DNA of 64,000 nucleotides. Source: Candidatus Enterousia sp. (GTDB taxonomy: Bacteria; Pseudomonadota; Alphaproteobacteria; Rs-D84). Of this stretch, positions 48,418-54,562 are shown one piece after another. The position numbers and the translations under genes were made by a program. The stretch lies in the NCBI GenBank assembly GCA_045643965.1, contig JAZRGB010000023.1, forward strand, positions 12,137-76,136, read 5' to 3'. The first letter of the stretch is position 1. Every line of letters begins with the position of its first letter. Under the pieces are notes generated by a model, which worked only from the letters and a program-made list of their open reading frames with translations, was not told the origin of the DNA and searched no databases.

Positions 48418-50007
48418 ATGTATATAAACAGAATTTTTACTTATTTAATTTCAGTCTTTGTTTTAACAGGCTGTGCGGGCAAATTAACCCAAGATGCAAA
48501 TTGGTCTGTATCTGATGATACAGTTGTGGGTCACCCATCTAATCTGGAACACGGTCCGTTTTCAAACATGTACGGCACATTTACAGACGACGCACATAAT
48601 ATTGCAGTACTGTTACCATTATCTGGCACATCTGCATCTGCAGGCAAGACAATCCGCACATCTGTTGAAATAGCAGTACTGGAAAGCAGTGCTCAAAATC
48701 TGTCTGTATCATTTTATGACACCGCATCTGATGCAAAAACATCAATTGATACCGCATTGGCATCAAATCCAGATGTTATAATTGGCCCACTGTTTGCCAA
48801 AGACGCATATGATTTACGCAAATCAAAGCCATCTGAAACACCTGCTATATCATTTACATCTGATGCGACTGCGGTTGGTGATGGTGTTTTAAGCGTTGCA
48901 TTAATGCCAAACAATGGTGTCGAAGAAATCGTCAAACAAATTAAATCTGACGATATCAAGAAATTCATTATTATCGCCCCCGACACAAAATCAGGTCATT
49001 TAATGGCAGGCACCGCAAAATCGGCTGCCCAAATTTATGAAATGCCATTAATTGGAATATTCTTTTACACAGAAAAAGATTCCGATTCCATTAAAAATGC
49101 CGCAATGTCTGCATCAATGTATAATGCACGAACAACCGCACACACACGTGCACGTCAGGTTATATCTGATGTCTTGACTGGTGAAACATTAACTCCTATT
49201 GAAAAATCAAACTTAAACACCCAACTGGAAAAACTGGAAAAAACAGAAACAGTTGGCAACGTACCGTATGACGGAATTTTATTCTTAGGCAACGGTGAAG
49301 ACACCAAGGCACTGGCATCCTTTCTGCGTTATTACAATGTTGGTGCACGCGACGCCGCATTTTATGGAACAACAATGTGGGACGGATCAGATATCGCATC
49401 TGATTACACGTTAAGCGGTGCAAAATACGCCACAATGCCACAAACAAAACCAGAATTTACAGCATTATATGAACAAGTATCTGGCACAACACCAAATCGA
49501 CTGGCCAGTTTTGGATACGACGCAACCAACATGGCGATTAATATGCTGGCATCCAACAAATCTAAATCTGCATATTTATTAGACCCCAGCGGTTACATCG
49601 GAACAGACGGTCTGTTCAGATTAAAACCAAATGGCGACAACGAACGTGCATTACGCATAATGCAGTTGAACGGTTCTGGCACACCAACTGAAATCCGCCC
49701 TGCACCAACCAGTTTTATGATACCATTGTATAACATTGAACAGAAACGCATTGAACCAGCAAATGCAATGGACATGGAAACATCTGGCATTGACCCAGAC
49801 GATTATATTCGTCTGCCAGAAAGATTGCGTGATAAATATCGCAGCAAAACAATCGGTGCAAACACAAAACAAGAATCAACACCAATTCCAACAAATATCG
49901 TTACAATAGAATCAGACAACACATCTATAAAATCATCTGAATTTAAACCTGTAAAATTGGAATCTGTTAAACGCACATACATCGAAGAATACGAAATCGA
50001 AGAATAA
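48418..50007 (+). CDS. LppC/LpoA-family lipoprotein (penicillin-binding-protein-activator-like, periplasmic-binding-protein fold)
   Basis: ORF 48364..50007. Start chosen at MYINRIFTYLISVFVLTGC (lipobox). A periplasmic-binding-protein type-1-like segment (IAVLLPLSGTSASAGK) is present. The gene is divergent from rsmI, as in the rsmI-lpoA/lppC synteny. Confidence 0.5.
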   Translation: MYINRIFTYLISVFVLTGCAGKLTQDANWSVSDDTVVGHPSNLEHGPFSNMYGTFTDDAHNIAVLLPLSGTSASAGKTIRTSVEIAVLESSAQNLSVSFYDTASDAKTSIDTALASNPDVIIGPLFAKDAYDLRKSKPSETPAISFTSDATAVGDGVLSVALMPNNGVEEIVKQIKSDDIKKFIIIAPDTKSGHLMAGTAKSAAQIYEMPLIGIFFYTEKDSDSIKNAAMSASMYNARTTAHTRARQVISDVLTGETLTPIEKSNLNTQLEKLEKTETVGNVPYDGILFLGNGEDTKALASFLRYYNVGARDAAFYGTTMWDGSDIASDYTLSGAKYATMPQTKPEFTALYEQVSGTTPNRLASFGYDATNMAINMLASNKSKSAYLLDPSGYIGTDGLFRLKPNGDNERALRIMQLNGSGTPTEIRPAPTSFMIPLYNIEQKRIEPANAMDMETSGIDPDDYIRLPERLRDKYRSKTIGANTKQESTPIPTNIVTIESDNTSIKSSEFKPVKLESVKRTYIEEYEIEE

Positions 50008-50693
50008 TGAAAAAACTATTAATTTGGGATTTTGATGGTGTTATTGCAGACAGTGAAAAATTATGGGTACAATCTTGGATTGAAGTTTTAAAAACAGAAA
50101 AAAACATTGTATTAACAGATTCTGAAATCAAAGATTTATTAGTCGGCGTTTCCGACAAAACGCGTTGTCAAAGACTTGAAAAACATATATCAAATTTAAT
50201 TCTTGATAACGAATTTATGCAAAAAATTCATGAAAAAGAATATTATCTGGGCAGTAATTTTATGACTGCTATTAATGGTGTTGAAAACGTAATGGCAAAC
50301 ACATATTTTGAACATTGTATTGCCACAGGTGCGACATCAGAACAACATCAATGGAAAATGAAACAATTTGAATGGATACGAAAATACATGTCTGACCAAG
50401 ACTTTTTCACCGTTGACATGGTAACACATGGCAAACCTGCACCAGACTTATTTTTATTGGCGGCAAAAACAAAGAAATATCATCCATCAGATTGCATCGT
50501 TATTGGCGACAGTGTAAACGATTTTATGGCTGCAAAATCTGCAAACATGGATTGTATTGCGTTTGTTGGTGCCACAGGTAATAACACCGATGAATATATA
50601 AACAAATGTAAAACTTATGATATTTTTGATATCTGCGACAATATGGATTCAGTAAACACAGCGATAAACAGATGGTTAAAAAACAAAATTTGA
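50007..50693 (+). CDS. HAD-superfamily hydrolase (beta-phosphoglucomutase-like subfamily)
   Basis: LIWDFDGVIADSE motif I, and …GDSVNDFMAAKSANM… motif IV. Its start overlaps the upstream stop (TAATG). Confidence 0.75.
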   Translation: MKKLLIWDFDGVIADSEKLWVQSWIEVLKTEKNIVLTDSEIKDLLVGVSDKTRCQRLEKHISNLILDNEFMQKIHEKEYYLGSNFMTAINGVENVMANTYFEHCIATGATSEQHQWKMKQFEWIRKYMSDQDFFTVDMVTHGKPAPDLFLLAAKTKKYHPSDCIVIGDSVNDFMAAKSANMDCIAFVGATGNNTDEYINKCKTYDIFDICDNMDSVNTAINRWLKNKI

Positions 50694-50716
50694 TAAATTA
50701 ACAAAGGTGGCAGATT

Positions 50717-51445
50717 ATGGCTATTATACTTGGCGGTGGTGGACATGGGGAACAAACCGTTATTACAAACAAGTTATTTGAAAGTTTAATAGATTCAAAC
50801 AAACCGATTTTATATATTCCTTTGGCGTGGGAACACTATGACGAAGGTTATCAAAATTGTAAAAAGTTTTTAATTGGCGAATTTAGTAACATCAAACATG
50901 GCGAAATAGAAGTTATACAATCTGCAGACGAAATTTTAGATAAAAATTTATTTGATTATTCTGCTATTTTTATCGGCGGTGGAAATACCTATAAATTATT
51001 AAAAAATTTGAAAGACAGTGGTGCATTCGAAAAAATAAAACAATATACCGACAACGGTGGCATTGTTTATGGTGGCAGTGCTGGTGCCGCAATATTTGGC
51101 AAAGATATTAATTCTATTTTTTATATGGATACAAATAATGTCGATTTAAAAGACACCAGCGGATTTAATTCACTATTTGGATTTTCACTTACTGCACACT
51201 ATACAAATCAAAGTGAAGAGAATCATAAACACGCCACAGAATATATAACAAAATATTCTATGCACGAACCAATAATCGCATTACCAGAAGAAGACAGTCT
51301 TTATACAGATGGGAAAATTGTAAAAATAGTTGGGTCAAGACCATGGTATATTTTCAACAATGGTAAAAATCAACAATCAGCACCGAACGTTGAATACACA
51401 CGTGATGAATTTATCAATATTGTAAAAACCACCAGCAATACCTAA
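50717..51445 (+). CDS. Peptidase E / S51-family dipeptidase
   Basis: IFIGGGNTYKLLKNL … YGGSAGAAIFG (catalytic Ser in GGSAG). 242 aa. Confidence 0.7.
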   Translation: MAIILGGGGHGEQTVITNKLFESLIDSNKPILYIPLAWEHYDEGYQNCKKFLIGEFSNIKHGEIEVIQSADEILDKNLFDYSAIFIGGGNTYKLLKNLKDSGAFEKIKQYTDNGGIVYGGSAGAAIFGKDINSIFYMDTNNVDLKDTSGFNSLFGFSLTAHYTNQSEENHKHATEYITKYSMHEPIIALPEEDSLYTDGKIVKIVGSRPWYIFNNGKNQQSAPNVEYTRDEFINIVKTTSNT

Positions 51446-51475: not shown

Positions 51476-51504
51476 AAAACCGACCATAAAGGTCGGTTTA
51501 TGTT
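51476..51504 (+). terminator. Rho-independent terminator of the peptidase E gene
   Basis: aaaaaccgaccataaaggtcggtttatgttt. Confidence 0.7.
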
Positions 51505-51522
51505 TCTGGTGGGAGTGGCTGG
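51503..51522. repeat. 20-bp direct repeat copy of the tRNA-Tyr-like 3' end (tttctggtgggagtggctgg)
   Basis: Identical 20-mer at 51503-51522 and 51746-51765. The second copy is the 3' acceptor/T-stem end of the minus-strand tRNA-Tyr-like gene. This is an att-site-like duplication. Confidence 0.7.
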
Positions 51523-51715
51523 GGCCCTCGATACACAATAATTAAAATCAAAAAAATCTTGTTCCGGCGATTTTTTAAGATTTTTATAATTGTATATTCT
51601 CGTATTCGCTCGGCATAAATGCCTGCGCGGCAACCGTAACGATTTTGCTTCGCTTTACTCGCAAAATCTACTTGTTGTCGAACGTGCATCTAACCCATAA
51701 GCCACGTCCACAGAA

Positions 51716-51746
51716 ACAAAAAACACCCCAAACGGGGTGTTTTTTA
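51716..51746 (-). terminator. Rho-independent terminator downstream of the tRNA genes (also functional-looking on the plus strand)
   Basis: aaaaaacaccccaaacggggtgttttttatt. Confidence 0.7.
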
Positions 51747-51749
51747 TTT

Positions 51750-51825
51750 CTGGTGGGAGTGGCTGGATTCGAACCAGCTCAGGCTTAAGCCAACAGATTT
51801 ACAGTCTGCCCCGGCTCTCCAACTC
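51750..51825 (-). tRNA. tRNA-Tyr(GTA)-like gene, 3' two-thirds canonical, 5' acceptor/D-arm region not canonical (possibly truncated or pseudo)
   Basis: The minus-strand sequence reads …gcaga CTGTAAA tctgt | tggcttaagcc (long variable arm) | gctgg TTCGAAT ccagc | cactccc A CCA. The anticodon GTA, class-II variable arm and T-arm are canonical. Only about 17 nt precede the anticodon stem, too few for an acceptor strand plus D-arm. The candidate 5' strand ggagttg pairs imperfectly with the 3' strand. Confidence 0.45.
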
Positions 51826-51843
51826 CGGCGCACGCCCAATCCT

Positions 51844-51917
51844 TGGTGCGGGCAGCGGGAATCGAACCCGCATTTCAAGCTTGGAAGGCTTGCATACTAG
51901 CCTTTGTACTATGCCCG
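51844..51917 (-). tRNA. tRNA-Gly(TCC)
   Basis: GCGGGCA TA GTAC AAAGGCTA GTAT G CAAGC CTTCCAA GCTTG AAAT GCGGG TTCGATT CCCGC TGCCCGC A CCA. All stems pair. Anticodon TCC. The 3' CCA is encoded. Confidence 0.85.
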
Positions 51918-51999
51918 CAACAAAATCAAAGCCCAGTGATTATATAATAAATGAAATCAAAATCAAGACATTTTTTACCAAAACAACATAATTAGCAAA

Positions 52000-52107
52000 G
52001 AAATTAAAGATAATGATTTAGATAAAAACAAATCGGGAATCGTAGTGTACAAACGCTACATGAATTGACCGGTACTGCTTTTAGATAAATTATTATCGGC
52101 AATTTTT
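52000..52107. repeat. Palindromic hairpin element (E6), type-II left terminus, degenerate (non-complementary right arm)
   Basis: gaaattaaagataatgatttagataaaa | arm acaaatcgggaatc | core GTAGTGTACAAACGCTACATGAATTG (52042-52067) | accggtactg | cttttagataaattattatcggcaattttt. Confidence 0.6.
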
Positions 52108-52109
52108 TA

Positions 52110-52213
52110 GAAATAAATTAGAATAGTTTAGATAAAAGTAGTGCCGGCAATGTAGTGTACAGACGCTACATAAATTGCCGGCACCGCTTTTAGATAAATT
52201 ATTATAATTTATT
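52110..52213. repeat. Palindromic hairpin element (E7), type-I termini
   Basis: gaaataaattagaatagtttagataaaa | stem gtagtgccggcaat / attgccggcaccgc | core GTAGTGTACAGACGCTACATAAAT (52152-52175) | ttttagataaattattataatttatttt. It abuts the stop codon (tta 52214-16) of the small Cys-rich gene. Confidence 0.75.
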
Positions 52214-52489
52214 TTATTTGATTGGCGGGAAACAATCACCCCCACTCTCTGGACAACAGTTATATCCTAAATCACCCATGTTGGTATAAACTTCACCAAC
52301 ACAACAACCATTTTTATCTGGTGTTGTGCCATCAAGACATTTCAACGATGGACCAAATGAAAACATATCAATATTTGCATATACTAAAATACCAAACATT
52401 GCACCCAACACAAAAGAAACAACCAAGGAAACCCATGATGTTGTTTTACTTGTTTTTTTCATTGTTGATTTTTTTGTAACTTTTTTCAT
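52214..52489 (-). CDS. Small membrane-anchored protein with a C-terminal 7-Cys module (paralog of 52503..53060)
   Basis: A basic N-terminus plus TM helix (WVSLVVSFVLGAMFGILVYA), then CLDGTTPDKNGCCVGEVYTNMGDLGYNCCPESGGDCFPPIK. The motif is shared with the neighbouring gene. Confidence 0.6.
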   Translation of the reverse strand: MKKVTKKSTMKKTSKTTSWVSLVVSFVLGAMFGILVYANIDMFSFGPSLKCLDGTTPDKNGCCVGEVYTNMGDLGYNCCPESGGDCFPPIK

Positions 52490-52502
52490 ATTTTCTATCC
52501 TC

Positions 52503-53060
52503 TTATTCTATTGGCGGAAAACATTCACCATCCCCAGACTTTGGACAACATGCAAAAACAGAATTACCAAGGTCTTTAAAGACTTCACCTGTGCAACAAC
52601 CAAACTTGTTTGGTTTTGTTCCATCAACACACAAACCCGCATCCAAATTTGCCAATTCTTGTTCCAACAATGCTTCTTCATCGATTTCTTCTGTTTCTTC
52701 TGCGACAAATTCTTCGTCTTCGACGGCTACTTCTGCCGCTGTTGTTACGACATCAGATTTTGTTTCTGTAACTGTTTCTTCTGCAACCTCTTCTGGGGTT
52801 GTAACAGTTGCAGCAACAACAGTATTTTTCACCGCAGACGACTTACGTTTTGCTGCACTGCGTGAACACTTGCTGCGATAATCTGTCTTTAATTTATCCA
52901 ATTCTGCGATTTCGTCTTCTGTTGGTTCTTCGACAGCAGACAATTCTGTAATTTTCGCCTGAATATCTGCACAAGACACACGTTCTGCAACATTTGGTGT
53001 ATCTTCTGCAAATGCACCTGTCGCAGTAATTAATCCAATTAACGCAATCAATATTTTCAT
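52503..53060 (-). CDS. Secreted acidic protein with a C-terminal 7-Cys module (paralog of 52214..52489)
   Basis: Signal peptide MKILIALIGLITATGAFA, a Glu/Thr/Val-rich acidic linker, then CVDGTKPNKFGCCTGEVFKDLGNSVFACCPKSGDGECFPPIE. Confidence 0.6.
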   Translation of the reverse strand: MKILIALIGLITATGAFAEDTPNVAERVSCADIQAKITELSAVEEPTEDEIAELDKLKTDYRSKCSRSAAKRKSSAVKNTVVAATVTTPEEVAEETVTETKSDVVTTAAEVAVEDEEFVAEETEEIDEEALLEQELANLDAGLCVDGTKPNKFGCCTGEVFKDLGNSVFACCPKSGDGECFPPIE

Positions 53061-53073
53061 ATGATGTACCTTT

Positions 53074-53820
53074 TTAGTGTTCGTTTATGATTTTTTCGAC
53101 TTCCAGAATAAAATCTATCGCAGGATTTGTTAATTTTTTTGCAGTTTCAAAAATTTCTTCTGCGGCAGCTTGCATATTTAAACGTTTATACGTTTCAACA
53201 ACTTCGATTGTTTCTTCATTGTTAAATTCATCGTCTTGCAATGCACGTGCAATTTCCAATTCTTGCTTTGCCAGTTCAACATATTTTGCTTTGTTTTCAT
53301 CACAGCCACGTTCTGACAAGTTTGCATAAATTTTTGCACGTGTAATACGTTGATATGGTGGCATAGAAGTATATTCTTCTGGTAATTTGTCTAATAATGA
53401 TGCTTCTATTTTTTGACATGTTGTTTGTGCATCATTCTGTCCACCCAACGCAGCAACTATTTCCATTTCACGTGATATTGCAGCACGATACACACCTTTA
53501 TTCTGTGGACAACCATGCTGGAACAATGTTTCATAAATTCGAATATTGTCTTTATGATATTCTATATTACTTGAATTTTCATCATTCAAATACCCCAACT
53601 GAATTTCTTCGATAATGGCACAAGTTTCTTTTTGCTGATTCTGTTGTAATTCTGTTGCGTCCTGAACCAATGCTTGTTTTGGTTTTTCAGTGTTATATCC
53701 AATTCCCATACCAACCATAACACCACACACAAACAGCATTATCAGTGCCAACCAACCCTTGATTTTCTGTGAACGTGTATAAACAACTTTATAAACTTTC
53801 TTAGATTGTTTTTTTGCCAT
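53074..53820 (-). CDS. Hypothetical membrane-anchored protein with two ~60-aa internal repeats
   Basis: ORF 53074..53868. Start chosen at MAKKQSKK, with SD ggagagg upstream. The TM helix is WLALIMLFVCGVMVGMGIGY. Repeats are (…IYETLFQHGCPQNKGVYRAAISREMEIVAAL…) and (…IYANLSERGCDENKAKYVELAKQELEIARAL…). Confidence 0.55.
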   Translation of the reverse strand: MAKKQSKKVYKVVYTRSQKIKGWLALIMLFVCGVMVGMGIGYNTEKPKQALVQDATELQQNQQKETCAIIEEIQLGYLNDENSSNIEYHKDNIRIYETLFQHGCPQNKGVYRAAISREMEIVAALGGQNDAQTTCQKIEASLLDKLPEEYTSMPPYQRITRAKIYANLSERGCDENKAKYVELAKQELEIARALQDDEFNNEETIEVVETYKRLNMQAAAEEIFETAKKLTNPAIDFILEVEKIINEH

Positions 53821-53851
53821 AATTTCCCCTCTCCTATTTTCTGCTATTATA

Positions 53852-54562
53852 CTATTGAACAACGCCATTGTGAATAGTTATTTTTCTATCTGCTCTGTCT
53901 GCCAATGACATATCATGTGTAACAAACAGCATTGCCATTTTATTTTTACGCACAATATCCAACAACAAATCAAACACGGCACCTGCATGTTGCGGATCCA
54001 AATTACCTGTTGGTTCATCAGCCAATAATATATCAGGATTATTTGCCAACGCACGTGCCAACGCAGTTCGCTGTTGTTCACCGCCACTCATTTCCCCTGG
54101 ATGATGCGATGCACGATGTGCAACATTTGTTGCCTTTAATAATTTTATTGCACGTGTATTTGCAGTATCTTCGTCCATACCATTTGCCAACATTGGCAAG
54201 ACAACATTTTCCAGTGCTGTAAAATCAGATAACAAATTATGTTTTTGATATACAAAACCAATTTTATTTCTGCGTATTTTTGTACGCATATCTTCGTCCA
54301 TTTTATGTACAGGTGCCCCAGAAATAACAATACTGCCACCACTTGGCTTATCCAGCAACCCAACACACTGTAACAACGTAGATTTACCACATCCAGACTG
54401 TCCAACCAAGGCAATTATTTCCCCACGATGCAAATCAAAACCACCACCACGTAAAATATGCAATGGTTGACCGCCTTCGATAAAGGTCTTTTTAATATCA
54501 CGCACCGACAGAACGACATCACCCTGCTTTACCCGTGACAAAGAATTTAAAATATTCGCCAT
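53852..54562 (-). CDS. lolD: Lipoprotein-releasing system ATP-binding protein LolD
   Basis: GEIIALVGQSGCGKSTLL Walker A, LSGGEQQRTALARAL signature, and the LolD-specific region. 236 aa. Confidence 0.85.
   Translation of the reverse strand: MANILNSLSRVKQGDVVLSVRDIKKTFIEGGQPLHILRGGGFDLHRGEIIALVGQSGCGKSTLLQCVGLLDKPSGGSIVISGAPVHKMDEDMRTKIRRNKIGFVYQKHNLLSDFTALENVVLPMLANGMDEDTANTRAIKLLKATNVAHRASHHPGEMSGGEQQRTALARALANNPDILLADEPTGNLDPQHAGAVFDLLLDIVRKNKMAMLFVTHDMSLADRADRKITIHNGVVQ

Follow-up and report, generated by a model that had tools for sequence, protein, structure and literature searches.

The subject of this analysis is a 64,000-nt stretch of DNA from the alphaproteobacterium Candidatus Enterousia sp. 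(contig JAZRGB010000023.1, positions 12,137 to 76,136), called the window below, in which the 3′ end of a transfer RNA (tRNA) gene, tRNA-Tyr, recurs a short distance downstream of that gene. We consider it probable that the repeat is the built-in 3′ end of a tRNA-trailing element that is a distant, generalised counterpart of the RtT units of Escherichia coli. The DNA closed by the repeat belongs to a family of elements whose helices covary, whose members end in a copy of the 3′ end of the tRNA that they follow (a rule that holds over 18 tRNA species), whose design resembles that of RtT, and which are gained, lost and multiplied into arrays. The copy in the window is an ordinary, somewhat derived member, and the interest of the locus lies in the family that it reveals.

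The tRNA-Tyr gene and its repeated 3′ end

Two sites in the window, 51503-51522 and 51747-51766, carry the exact 20-mer TTTCTGGTGGGAGTGGCTGG. A third copy with up to three mismatches was not detected there, and none is expected from shuffled sequence. Read on the minus strand, the 20-mer is CCAGCCACTCCCACCA followed by GAAA, that is, the final 16 nt of tRNA-Tyr plus a 4-nt trailer. A terminator-like hairpin lies directly after each copy on that strand, and the segment bracketed by the two copies measures 224 bp. A preliminary description of this DNA, made from the sequence alone, had reported the recurrence of the tRNA 3′ end at 51503-51522, and this is borne out by two exact copies where none would arise by chance. 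It had also held that dispersal of the 20-mer would speak against an attachment site; within the window the 20-mer is not dispersed. On the minus strand the order is a promoter-like site, tRNA-Gly, tRNA-Tyr, hairpin 1, an element of ~205 nt, and hairpin 2:

51939..51966, minus strand: promoter-like site (TTGATT, 16 nt, TATAAT), the best consensus match of the region (10/12)
51844..51918, minus strand: tRNA-Gly(TCC), first gene of the unit, 6 nt 5′ of tRNA-Tyr (ARAGORN; RF00005, 71 bits)
51751..51837, minus strand: tRNA-Tyr(GTA), complete class-II gene with encoded CCA (ARAGORN; RF00005, 39.3 bits; sequence identical in ~105 related genomes)
51711..51752, minus strand: terminator-like hairpin 1, core 51718-51745, 12-bp stem, between tRNA-Tyr and the element (terminator scan)
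51507..51713, minus strand: probable RtT-like tRNA-trailing element, ~205 nt, with a class-1 body, an AT-rich hairpin and a tRNA-end copy
51697..51708, minus strand: 5′ strand of the element, GUGGACGUGGCU, partner in a terminal helix of the copied T-stem/acceptor 3′ strand (minimum free energy folds)
51530..51600, minus strand: long AT-rich hairpin module, placed before the 3′ copy (inverted repeat I5; folds)
51507-51522, minus strand: second copy of the tRNA-Tyr 3′ end, CCAGCCACTCCCACCA, an exact repeat forming the 3′ end of the element, with trailer GAAA at 51503-51506
51477..51499, minus strand: terminator-like hairpin 2, 3′ of the element, 9-bp stem (terminator scan; repeat family D4)

The site at 51939..51966 is a putative promoter for the tRNA-Gly/tRNA-Tyr unit. 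The stem of hairpin 1 is lengthened by an A-tract and a U-tract, and the hairpin was also detected as inverted repeat I4 (19 nt, 95% complementary).

The tRNA-Tyr gene had been described as lacking a D-arm, as having its 5′ end at 51825 and, possibly, as a decayed attachment copy. The missing D-arm proved to be a boundary error. ARAGORN places the gene at 51751-51837, 12 nt longer on the 5′ side, and folds it into a normal tRNA-Tyr(GTA), which refutes the truncation; both ARAGORN and Rfam RF00005 give a complete cloverleaf. The RF00005 alignment covers model positions 1-71 with 39.3 bits against a gathering score of 29, and contains the acceptor (GGGCGUG/CACUCCC), the D-arm (CCGG-AGUUGGAGAG-CCGG), the anticodon arm, the variable arm, the T-arm and CCA. 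The gene has two oddities, a C4:U69 acceptor mismatch and C8 in place of U8. U8 is near-universal in tRNAs, and both features are unusual for a functional tRNA. Because both oddities are invariant in ~105 related genomes and the variable arm shows compensatory changes among these genomes, the window's gene is the normal tRNA-Tyr of its clade; it is intact, and no decayed copy.

The element family and its cognate tRNA ends

Related loci, cited below by their L numbers, were collected in a one-genome-per-species scan with the tRNA-Tyr 3′ 25-mer, which returned 110 stretches. Almost all came from metagenome-assembled genomes of gut alphaproteobacteria labelled Candidatus Enterousia, Rickettsiales or Alphaproteobacteria. 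The genus Enterousia, part of the uncultured order Rs-D84, has genomes of 0.75-1.0 Mb that are ~90% coding (PMC12306168), which makes the retention of an additional element there notable. In about half of the 110 loci a recognisable element followed the terminator hairpin of tRNA-Tyr and ended, 120-300 nt downstream, in another copy of the tRNA 3′ end. The bodies of these elements were of three types (classes 1, 2 and 3), accompanied by hybrids, truncated copies and tandem arrays (L028, L069, L090, L109). Hybrids combined a class-2 5′ half with a class-1 3′ half in L051, L069 and L099, and the reverse in L018. Empty sites were also observed: the flank beginning AAAGATACACCGCAC stands directly after tRNA-Tyr there and after the 3′ copy of the element in filled genomes, as found by comparing L006, L009, L027, L029 and L093 with L018, L021, L045 and L049, which share this flank.

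To place the window's segment within this family we used R2, a covariance model of class 1 built from 27 elements with the window element excluded. R2 matched the window at 51588-51713 on the minus strand with 63.3 bits (E = 7e-14), and the next-best match in the 64 kb scored 14.8 bits. As 51588-51713 was the sole credible match, the window element is single-copy and not dispersed. The element starts 38 nt past the tRNA-Tyr CCA on the same strand, and, folded alone, has a minimum free energy of -63.3 kcal/mol (z = -4.4), with GUGGACGUGGCU paired to the copied AGCCACUCCCAC. It is ~90% identical to the elements of L019, L024 and L028, and among these four the similarity stops just past the copied CCA(+GAAA). 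Relative to other class-1 elements it has lost one hairpin and gained, before the 3′ copy, the AT-rich hairpin module common to class 3, which is present also in L091, L101 and L014. Only short, unconserved open reading frames (ORFs) lie between the repeats. One of them, a 63-aa basic ORF at 51498-51689 (minus strand) that runs through the element into the tRNA-end copy, was considered as an analogue of tpr, which lies inside rttR in E. coli, and dismissed as spurious; it is not conserved, its ATG being frame-shifted in L024 and L028, with TAG after 5 codons.

The segment might instead be a decayed tandem duplicate of tRNA-Tyr, a pseudo-tRNA of which the 3′ end survives, and it does hold tRNA-like pieces in the right order: GGACGUG, which equals the acceptor 5′ strand at 6/7 positions, the T-loop-like GUUCGA, and the 3′ end. 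Neither ARAGORN nor Rfam calls it a tRNA, however, and its structure, which is not that of a tRNA, is conserved across species and behind unrelated tRNAs. Twenty exact bases beside unrecognisable sequence also fit poorly with gradual decay, and we regard this origin as scarcely credible.

Members of the family were not confined to tRNA-Tyr. R1, a covariance model built from nine class-2 alphaproteobacterial elements only, gave two matches away from tRNA-Tyr, in L069 and L051, where tRNA-Met(CAT) is followed by a hairpin and then by a family member. The last bases of this element, AATCCCTCCGCTGCTACCA, are those of the same tRNA-Met, and the internal helix of the element reproduces the T-arm of that tRNA. 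In 100 related loci the matches of R1 and R2 adjoined tRNAs, with the exception of one in L021. That match (L021:1210-1333, plus strand, 37.8 bits) is the 5′ half of a truncated window-type element ~1 kb from tRNA-Tyr; every other family match directly follows a tRNA or a further element.

Metagenomes were then scanned with a pattern describing the tRNA-independent core (GAAAGGGRCCC..GGGAWT..ACAATCC), which yielded 81 stretches. An upstream tRNA was detectable for 63 units, and the 14 bases that decide each match lie outside the search pattern. In 58/63 units the pattern was followed by the upstream tRNA's final 16 nt, in most cases without a mismatch. These upstream tRNAs comprised 18 anticodon species for 11 amino acids (Arg ×3, Gln ×2, Glu, His, Leu, Lys, Met, Pro ×3, Ser ×3, Tyr and Val). 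Exact identity extended over 19 nt, from A58 to A76, in 41/57 unique units, and the boundary in E. coli likewise lies at 19 nt; six units, mainly behind Val or Leu tRNAs whose T-loop differs from AAU, were identical over 17 nt. Elements were found behind the last tRNA of a unit only (0/14 operon-internal tRNAs carried one). Not every terminal tRNA had one: tRNA-Thr(GGT) was always without, and 2/14 other terminal tRNAs carried one.

These data bear on the integrase scar proposed in the preliminary description, in which the two copies would be attL/attR-like remnants of insertion into tRNA-Tyr and the 224 bp the rest of a decayed island. In its favour, a segment framed by a direct repeat of a tRNA 3′ end has the classic att architecture, no dispersed copies of the repeat occur in the window, and the tRNA-Tyr flanks of relatives do host insertions that bear recombinases. 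The likeness to tRNA att sites extends to the intact tRNA and to a duplication that starts in the T-loop region. Since one core follows 18 tRNA species and copies the end of each, however, an integrase with a single att site cannot explain the element. Far from being what is left of an island, the segment is complete and belongs to a conserved, covarying family present in dozens of species, small and structured, without cargo, and without a recombinase gene or pseudogene in or beside the unit in the flanks examined. Unlike att sites, one family serves many tRNAs, and its internal sequence covaries with the copied tRNA strand. The serine recombinases of relatives lack flanking repeats of this kind in the stretches read; large serine recombinases are not known to leave long direct repeats. 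No phage matches were obtained with the repeat (below), and E. coli RtT has a like architecture without an island. Thus the copy of the tRNA end does bound a discrete added unit, as the scar reading required, but an att scar is very improbable. Comparison of the locus in relatives, which had been proposed as a check, revealed empty sites, swapped units and, in some flanks, recombinases.

Structural conservation was assessed by aligning 60 distinct metagenome elements to R1 and counting pairs; RNAalifold on a MAFFT alignment recovered the well-aligned hairpins only, and the alignment based on the covariance model was used for this reason. Standard pairs occupied 88.7% of cells against 73.3% in shuffled data (0/500 shuffles reached the observed value), a fraction that is inflated because the alignment was fitted to the model, although the shuffle and slide controls are clear. 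Cells changed on both sides numbered 199 against 72 shuffled (0/500), and the covariation score was 0.324 against 0.126 shuffled and 0.005-0.058 with the partners slid. Covarying positions included all five GAACC/GGUUC pairs and the CCCnnn/nnnGGG helix. The terminal helix (helix 1), formed by the 5′ strand and the copied T-stem, covaries across tRNA types (one pair was AU in 17 cases, CG in 16 and GC in 4) and was 69% paired in the 60 distinct members. Across 50 distinct sequences the variable core hairpin retained an end-stem of 5.6 bp; in shuffled sequences the value was 2.6 bp. Compensatory swaps were seen in the class-1 hairpin (GCAAUC/GAUUGC to GCGAC/GUCGC) and between the window and L019 (GAUUUUGC/GCAAAAUC to GAUUGUGG/CCACAAUC). 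The internal copy of the T-stem 5′ strand matches the cognate tRNA only modestly (3.23 vs 2.85 pairs of 5; 176/5000 permutations reached the mean).

Wobble pairs carried information on the strand. The core hairpin held 18 G.T against 7 A.C, single A.C mismatches (1×1) were fewer on the sense strand (10) than on the antisense strand (24), and L024 has a U.G wobble. This asymmetry modestly favours transcription of the tRNA strand. It also disfavours a small RNA read from the plus strand, from the AT-rich hairpin to the bidirectional hairpin 1, a candidate that we set aside since its TTGTTC/TATAAT spacer measures 20 nt and the promoter scan does not list it. A hammerhead-like core (CUGAGAUGAG...CGA) was likewise rejected; Rfam gave no ribozyme match, A14 is not conserved, and the motif is better read as tandem GA.

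A further alternative is a non-autonomous selfish cassette, which would insert at the T-loop/3′ end of tRNAs with a 19-bp target duplication and be mobilised by an enzyme encoded elsewhere. Its unit would consist of the tRNA 3′ end, the trailer, the hairpin and the body, the hairpins would serve the mobilising machinery, and transcription would be compatible with it, so that it does not conflict with an RNA made from the tRNA strand or with a tRNA-like 3′ end. Presence and absence at one site with the ancestral flank kept (L006/L027 vs L018/L021/L049) would be expected of such a cassette, as would several classes of body at one site, together with hybrids, truncated units and tandem arrays, one core behind 18 tRNA species with a sharp 19-nt duplication, and near-identical hairpins on either side of the element in several loci, as for a duplicated target plus trailer. 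The flank is, moreover, a recombination hotspot with serine recombinases in relatives. Against this, from one tRNA type to another the element's 5′ strand changes in step with the copied T-stem strand, a covariation that target duplication cannot create, and the wobble asymmetry points to RNA. Copies away from tRNAs were absent from the window and from ~1.2 Mb of related loci, save the truncated one in L021, and no transposase or integrase was seen in or beside the units or in the window flanks examined. The 20-mer and the tRNA-Tyr 3′ 25-mer have no matches in viral contigs (IMG/VR), and the reduced genomes of the hosts usually purge mobile DNA (PMC12306168). On balance we hold a selfish cassette to be unlikely. 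A miniature inverted-repeat transposable element (MITE) was rejected on similar grounds, with one copy in 64 kb and matches behind tRNAs in ~1.2 Mb of related loci (again save L021); the inverted ends and 19-nt repeat can be read as terminal inverted repeats and a target-site duplication, yet the left end covaries with the tRNA copy.

Several variants of the tRNA-end copies were observed in the related loci. The variant AGCCACTGGCACCA, with CC changed to GG, occurs in the 3′ copies of L007, L014, L019, L063, L100 and L109 and spans all three element classes; the tRNA is unchanged, the change makes CCAG/CUGG self-complementary, and the 5′ strand shows no compensating change. At L087:479-660 (minus strand) the first bases of the element are TTTCTGGTGGGAGTGGCT, which over 18 nt repeat the tRNA-Tyr 3′ end and its trailer perfectly in inverted orientation. 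A single long palindrome thus runs from the tRNA end through the hairpin into the start of the element, whose own 3′ copy has decayed to AGCCACTGCACATCA. A primer-binding site of retroelement type (5′ strand TGG..., complementary to the acceptor and CCA) was considered and rejected, as cognate and non-cognate complementarity were 9.72 and 9.23 of 14; it is striking in L087 and in Ser-CGA units and is not general. Finally, the 3′ 16-mer of tRNA-Gly recurs 97-98 nt 3′ of tRNA-Gly in L015, L046, L047, L052, L066, L067, L086, L089 and L095, a spacing that suggests tandem tRNA-Gly genes rather than an element.

Comparison with the RtT units of E. coli

Knowledge of RtT dates from the sequencing of the tyrT locus. 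In E. coli K-12, rttR is annotated downstream of tyrT/tyrV, and the Rfam model RF00391 finds four units there with 133-138 bits (gathering threshold 45 bits), all of which have AATCCTTCCCCCACCACCA at their 3′ end, corresponding to the final 19 nt of E. coli tRNA-Tyr. This model covers enterobacteria and tRNA-Tyr only, and it gave no match to the window at E ≤ 1. Two papers, both citing Bosl and Kersten (1991), describe the rtT RNA as processed from the tyrT transcript (10.1101/2024.07.17.603846; PMC3318445). Expression of RtT has been reported from Klebsiella (PMC4147364), and what RtT does is still described as unexplained (10.1101/2024.07.17.603846).

In the reverse search R1 was applied to the 3-kb E. 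coli locus, and its top four matches were exactly the four RtT units, each over the full model length and ending on ACCA. The scores were 17.7, 14.3, 14.2 and 13.1 bits (E 7e-4 to 1e-2), though the E-values of R1 are rough and four near-identical units amount to about one observation. The E. coli tRNA-Tyr genes scored 1.7 bits under the same model.

RtT and the alphaproteobacterial elements share a common design. Both stand directly downstream of a tRNA on the same strand (tRNA-Tyr in the window), and both end in an exact copy of the tRNA end, typically 19 nt, A58 to CCA (16 nt in the window). In the Rfam consensus of RtT, as in the family and in the folds of the window element, a terminal helix joins the 5′ strand to the copied 3′ strand of the T-stem. 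In RtT and class-2 elements GAUGAGAA is followed by the helix GAACCnn/nnGGUUC and then by GA, which together make a tandem-GA motif; the nn positions track the T-stem of the organism's own tRNA, being UU/AA in E. coli and AG/CU in the alphaproteobacterial elements. Further collinear motifs follow in both, and then AAUCC and the tRNA end. A tandem-GA motif and covariation in RtT have been reported with CaCoFold (10.1101/2020.02.04.933952), which fits the GAACC/GGUUC junction. Both kinds of element occur as single units or tandem arrays.

The differences are also clear. A strong terminator-like hairpin stands before and after each alphaproteobacterial unit and is absent in E. coli; the alphaproteobacterial bodies are modular (classes 1, 2, 3 and hybrids); and the family lies behind 18 tRNA species, whereas RtT lies behind tRNA-Tyr. 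Window-type elements contain no conserved tpr-like ORF, and their host is an alphaproteobacterium with a genome below 1 Mb. New relative to known RtT are therefore the distant lineage, the hairpin-flanked modular bodies, and the many tRNAs with a strict cognate-end rule. No RtT-like element beyond enterobacteria or behind other tRNAs was found in Rfam 15 or in the literature searched, which is not proof of absence.

In our view homology with E. coli RtT is likely, short of proof, and the common design is established. Apart from the fitted alignment and the rough E-values given above, several points weigh against an RtT-type element in the window. RF00391 found no match in class-2 and class-1 relatives even at E ≤ 10, the class-1 model R2 found nothing in the E. 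coli locus, and the window element, as a class-1 member, is tied to RtT solely through class 2 and the hybrids (L051, L069, L099, L018), so that convergence is possible. The window copy is itself derived: its hairpin enclosed by GAA/UUC is gone, it carries an 88-nt AT-rich insert, and 16 rather than 19 nt are copied. Its class-1 variant keeps GUUCGAC only and is without GAUGAGAA. The 3′ copies are decaying in L011, L087, L098 and L111, and many tRNA-Tyr sites are empty, which implies that the element is dispensable. Finally, no promoter of the element's own was found, and a strong terminator-like hairpin separates it from the tRNA.

Neighbouring genes, proposed mechanism and meaning

The downstream neighbours of the tRNA unit in the window are a Peptidase_S51 gene, a HAD hydrolase gene and an LppC/LpoA-like lipoprotein gene. 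In 86 related loci the gene that comes first after tRNA-Tyr fell into 34 groups and was most commonly LpoA-like (31/86); in the window, the Peptidase_S51 and HAD genes (50007-51445) sit between the tRNA unit and the LpoA-like neighbour. In L032 and in L042, L079 and L084 the first gene encodes a large serine recombinase, convergent with the tRNA and past the terminator, with Resolvase and Recombinase domains and, in L032, Zn_ribbon_recom in addition. The tRNA-Tyr flank is thus a hotspot of variation and recombination in the clade. The sense of recombination at tRNA-Tyr in the preliminary description was sound for the clade, and the repeat itself is explained by the element family. No recombinase-like ORF lay in or beside the unit in the flanks examined, the other ORFs of the window having been listed and not scanned with Pfam. 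The 20-mer and the tRNA-Tyr 3′ 25-mer matched 0 viral contigs in IMG/VR, and an exact-protein look-up of the neighbouring peptidase gave no match.

Upstream of the tRNA operon lies the islet (52214-53820) that had been offered in support of an insertion. The two hairpin elements next to the tRNAs (51999-52067 and 52109-52214), which had been counted with that islet, belong to a repeat dispersed in the window, with further copies at ~648, 37222 and 42049. With up to 2 mismatches allowed, the core of this repeat, GTAGTGTACARACGCTACAT, occurs 5 times in the window, always on the plus strand, and chance predicts 0 copies. Three Logan contigs with the neighbouring genes stop just short of it, as is seen with repeats that break assemblies, and look-ups of a 264-aa protein returned short contigs only, which end at the same hairpin repeat. 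It looks like a repetitive extragenic palindrome (REP) or MITE-like repeat and is unrelated to the tRNA repeat.

Three consecutive small proteins are encoded at 52214-52489, 52503-53060 and 53074-53868 (minus strand), and none has a Pfam match. The 91-aa and 185-aa proteins have a common Cys-rich C-terminal domain (C.DGT.P.K.GCC.GEV....G....CCP.SG..CFPPI) with 57% identity over 42 aa (E = 3e-17). Identical copies of all three proteins occur in other gut-sample assemblies.

As for mechanism, family members stand directly behind the tRNA that closes a transcription unit in Ca. Enterousia and other Rs-D84 gut alphaproteobacteria. The proposed step in which we have most confidence is that the element RNA would be made from the tRNA strand, probably by read-through of hairpin 1. 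With somewhat less confidence, the 3′ end of the element may be made and protected by the tRNA 3′-processing machinery, because the element carries the tRNA's own 16-19 nt, trailer and a hairpin; E. coli rtT RNA is reported to be cut from the tyrT transcript. Less firmly again, recombination between the direct copies of the tRNA end could give rise to arrays, hybrids and loss, leaving empty sites. Our best guess at a function, and the least certain step, is that the element RNA might mimic the acceptor/T-arm toward factors that act on the 3′ half of the cognate tRNA.

Known systems that invite comparison with such an RNA include the 3′ETS-leuZ sponge of E. coli, an RNA derived from a tRNA precursor, and the tRNA-like parts of other RNAs, namely the TLD (tRNA-like domain) of transfer-messenger RNA (tmRNA), YrlA and the viral tRNA-like structures (TLS). 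Like the element, these are linked to a tRNA or mimic the acceptor/T-arm and end in CCA, and could use tRNA-processing enzymes. In contrast to tRNA-like domains, the mimicry of the element is specific to the neighbouring tRNA, and its T-loop is split by an insert of 50-100 nt. The element has no sequence or Rfam match among tRNA-precursor RNAs or tRNA-like domains. A tmRNA or permuted tmRNA was rejected, the weak Rfam matches covering the T-arm/CCA only (18 and 12 bits) and ARAGORN calling no tmRNA.

At a practical level, copies of a tRNA end can pass for att scars or broken tRNAs with annotators and island finders, as happened here. The locus turns RtT from an orphan into a comparative dataset with natural 'swap' experiments, and makes two questions testable: what purpose the copied tRNA end has, and how the copy stays matched to the neighbouring tRNA. 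If the elements were selfish cassettes that target tRNA T-loops, they would represent a new kind of bacterial mobile DNA. It is also possible, although we think it doubtful, that RtT is no peculiarity of enterobacteria and represents the one member so far described in a wide class of structured 'tRNA-shadow' RNAs, which would be appended to tRNA transcription units and carry, around a shared core, the T-stem and acceptor 3′ strands and CCA of the tRNA in question. Should this be true, either selection or templating from the adjacent gene would keep the copy matched to its tRNA, and the keeping of 'tRNA-shadow' RNAs in genomes below 1 Mb would imply a tRNA-specific function, candidates for which would be a mimic or decoy aimed at enzymes, nucleases or toxins acting on the tRNA 3′ half, or a cofactor of 3′ processing.

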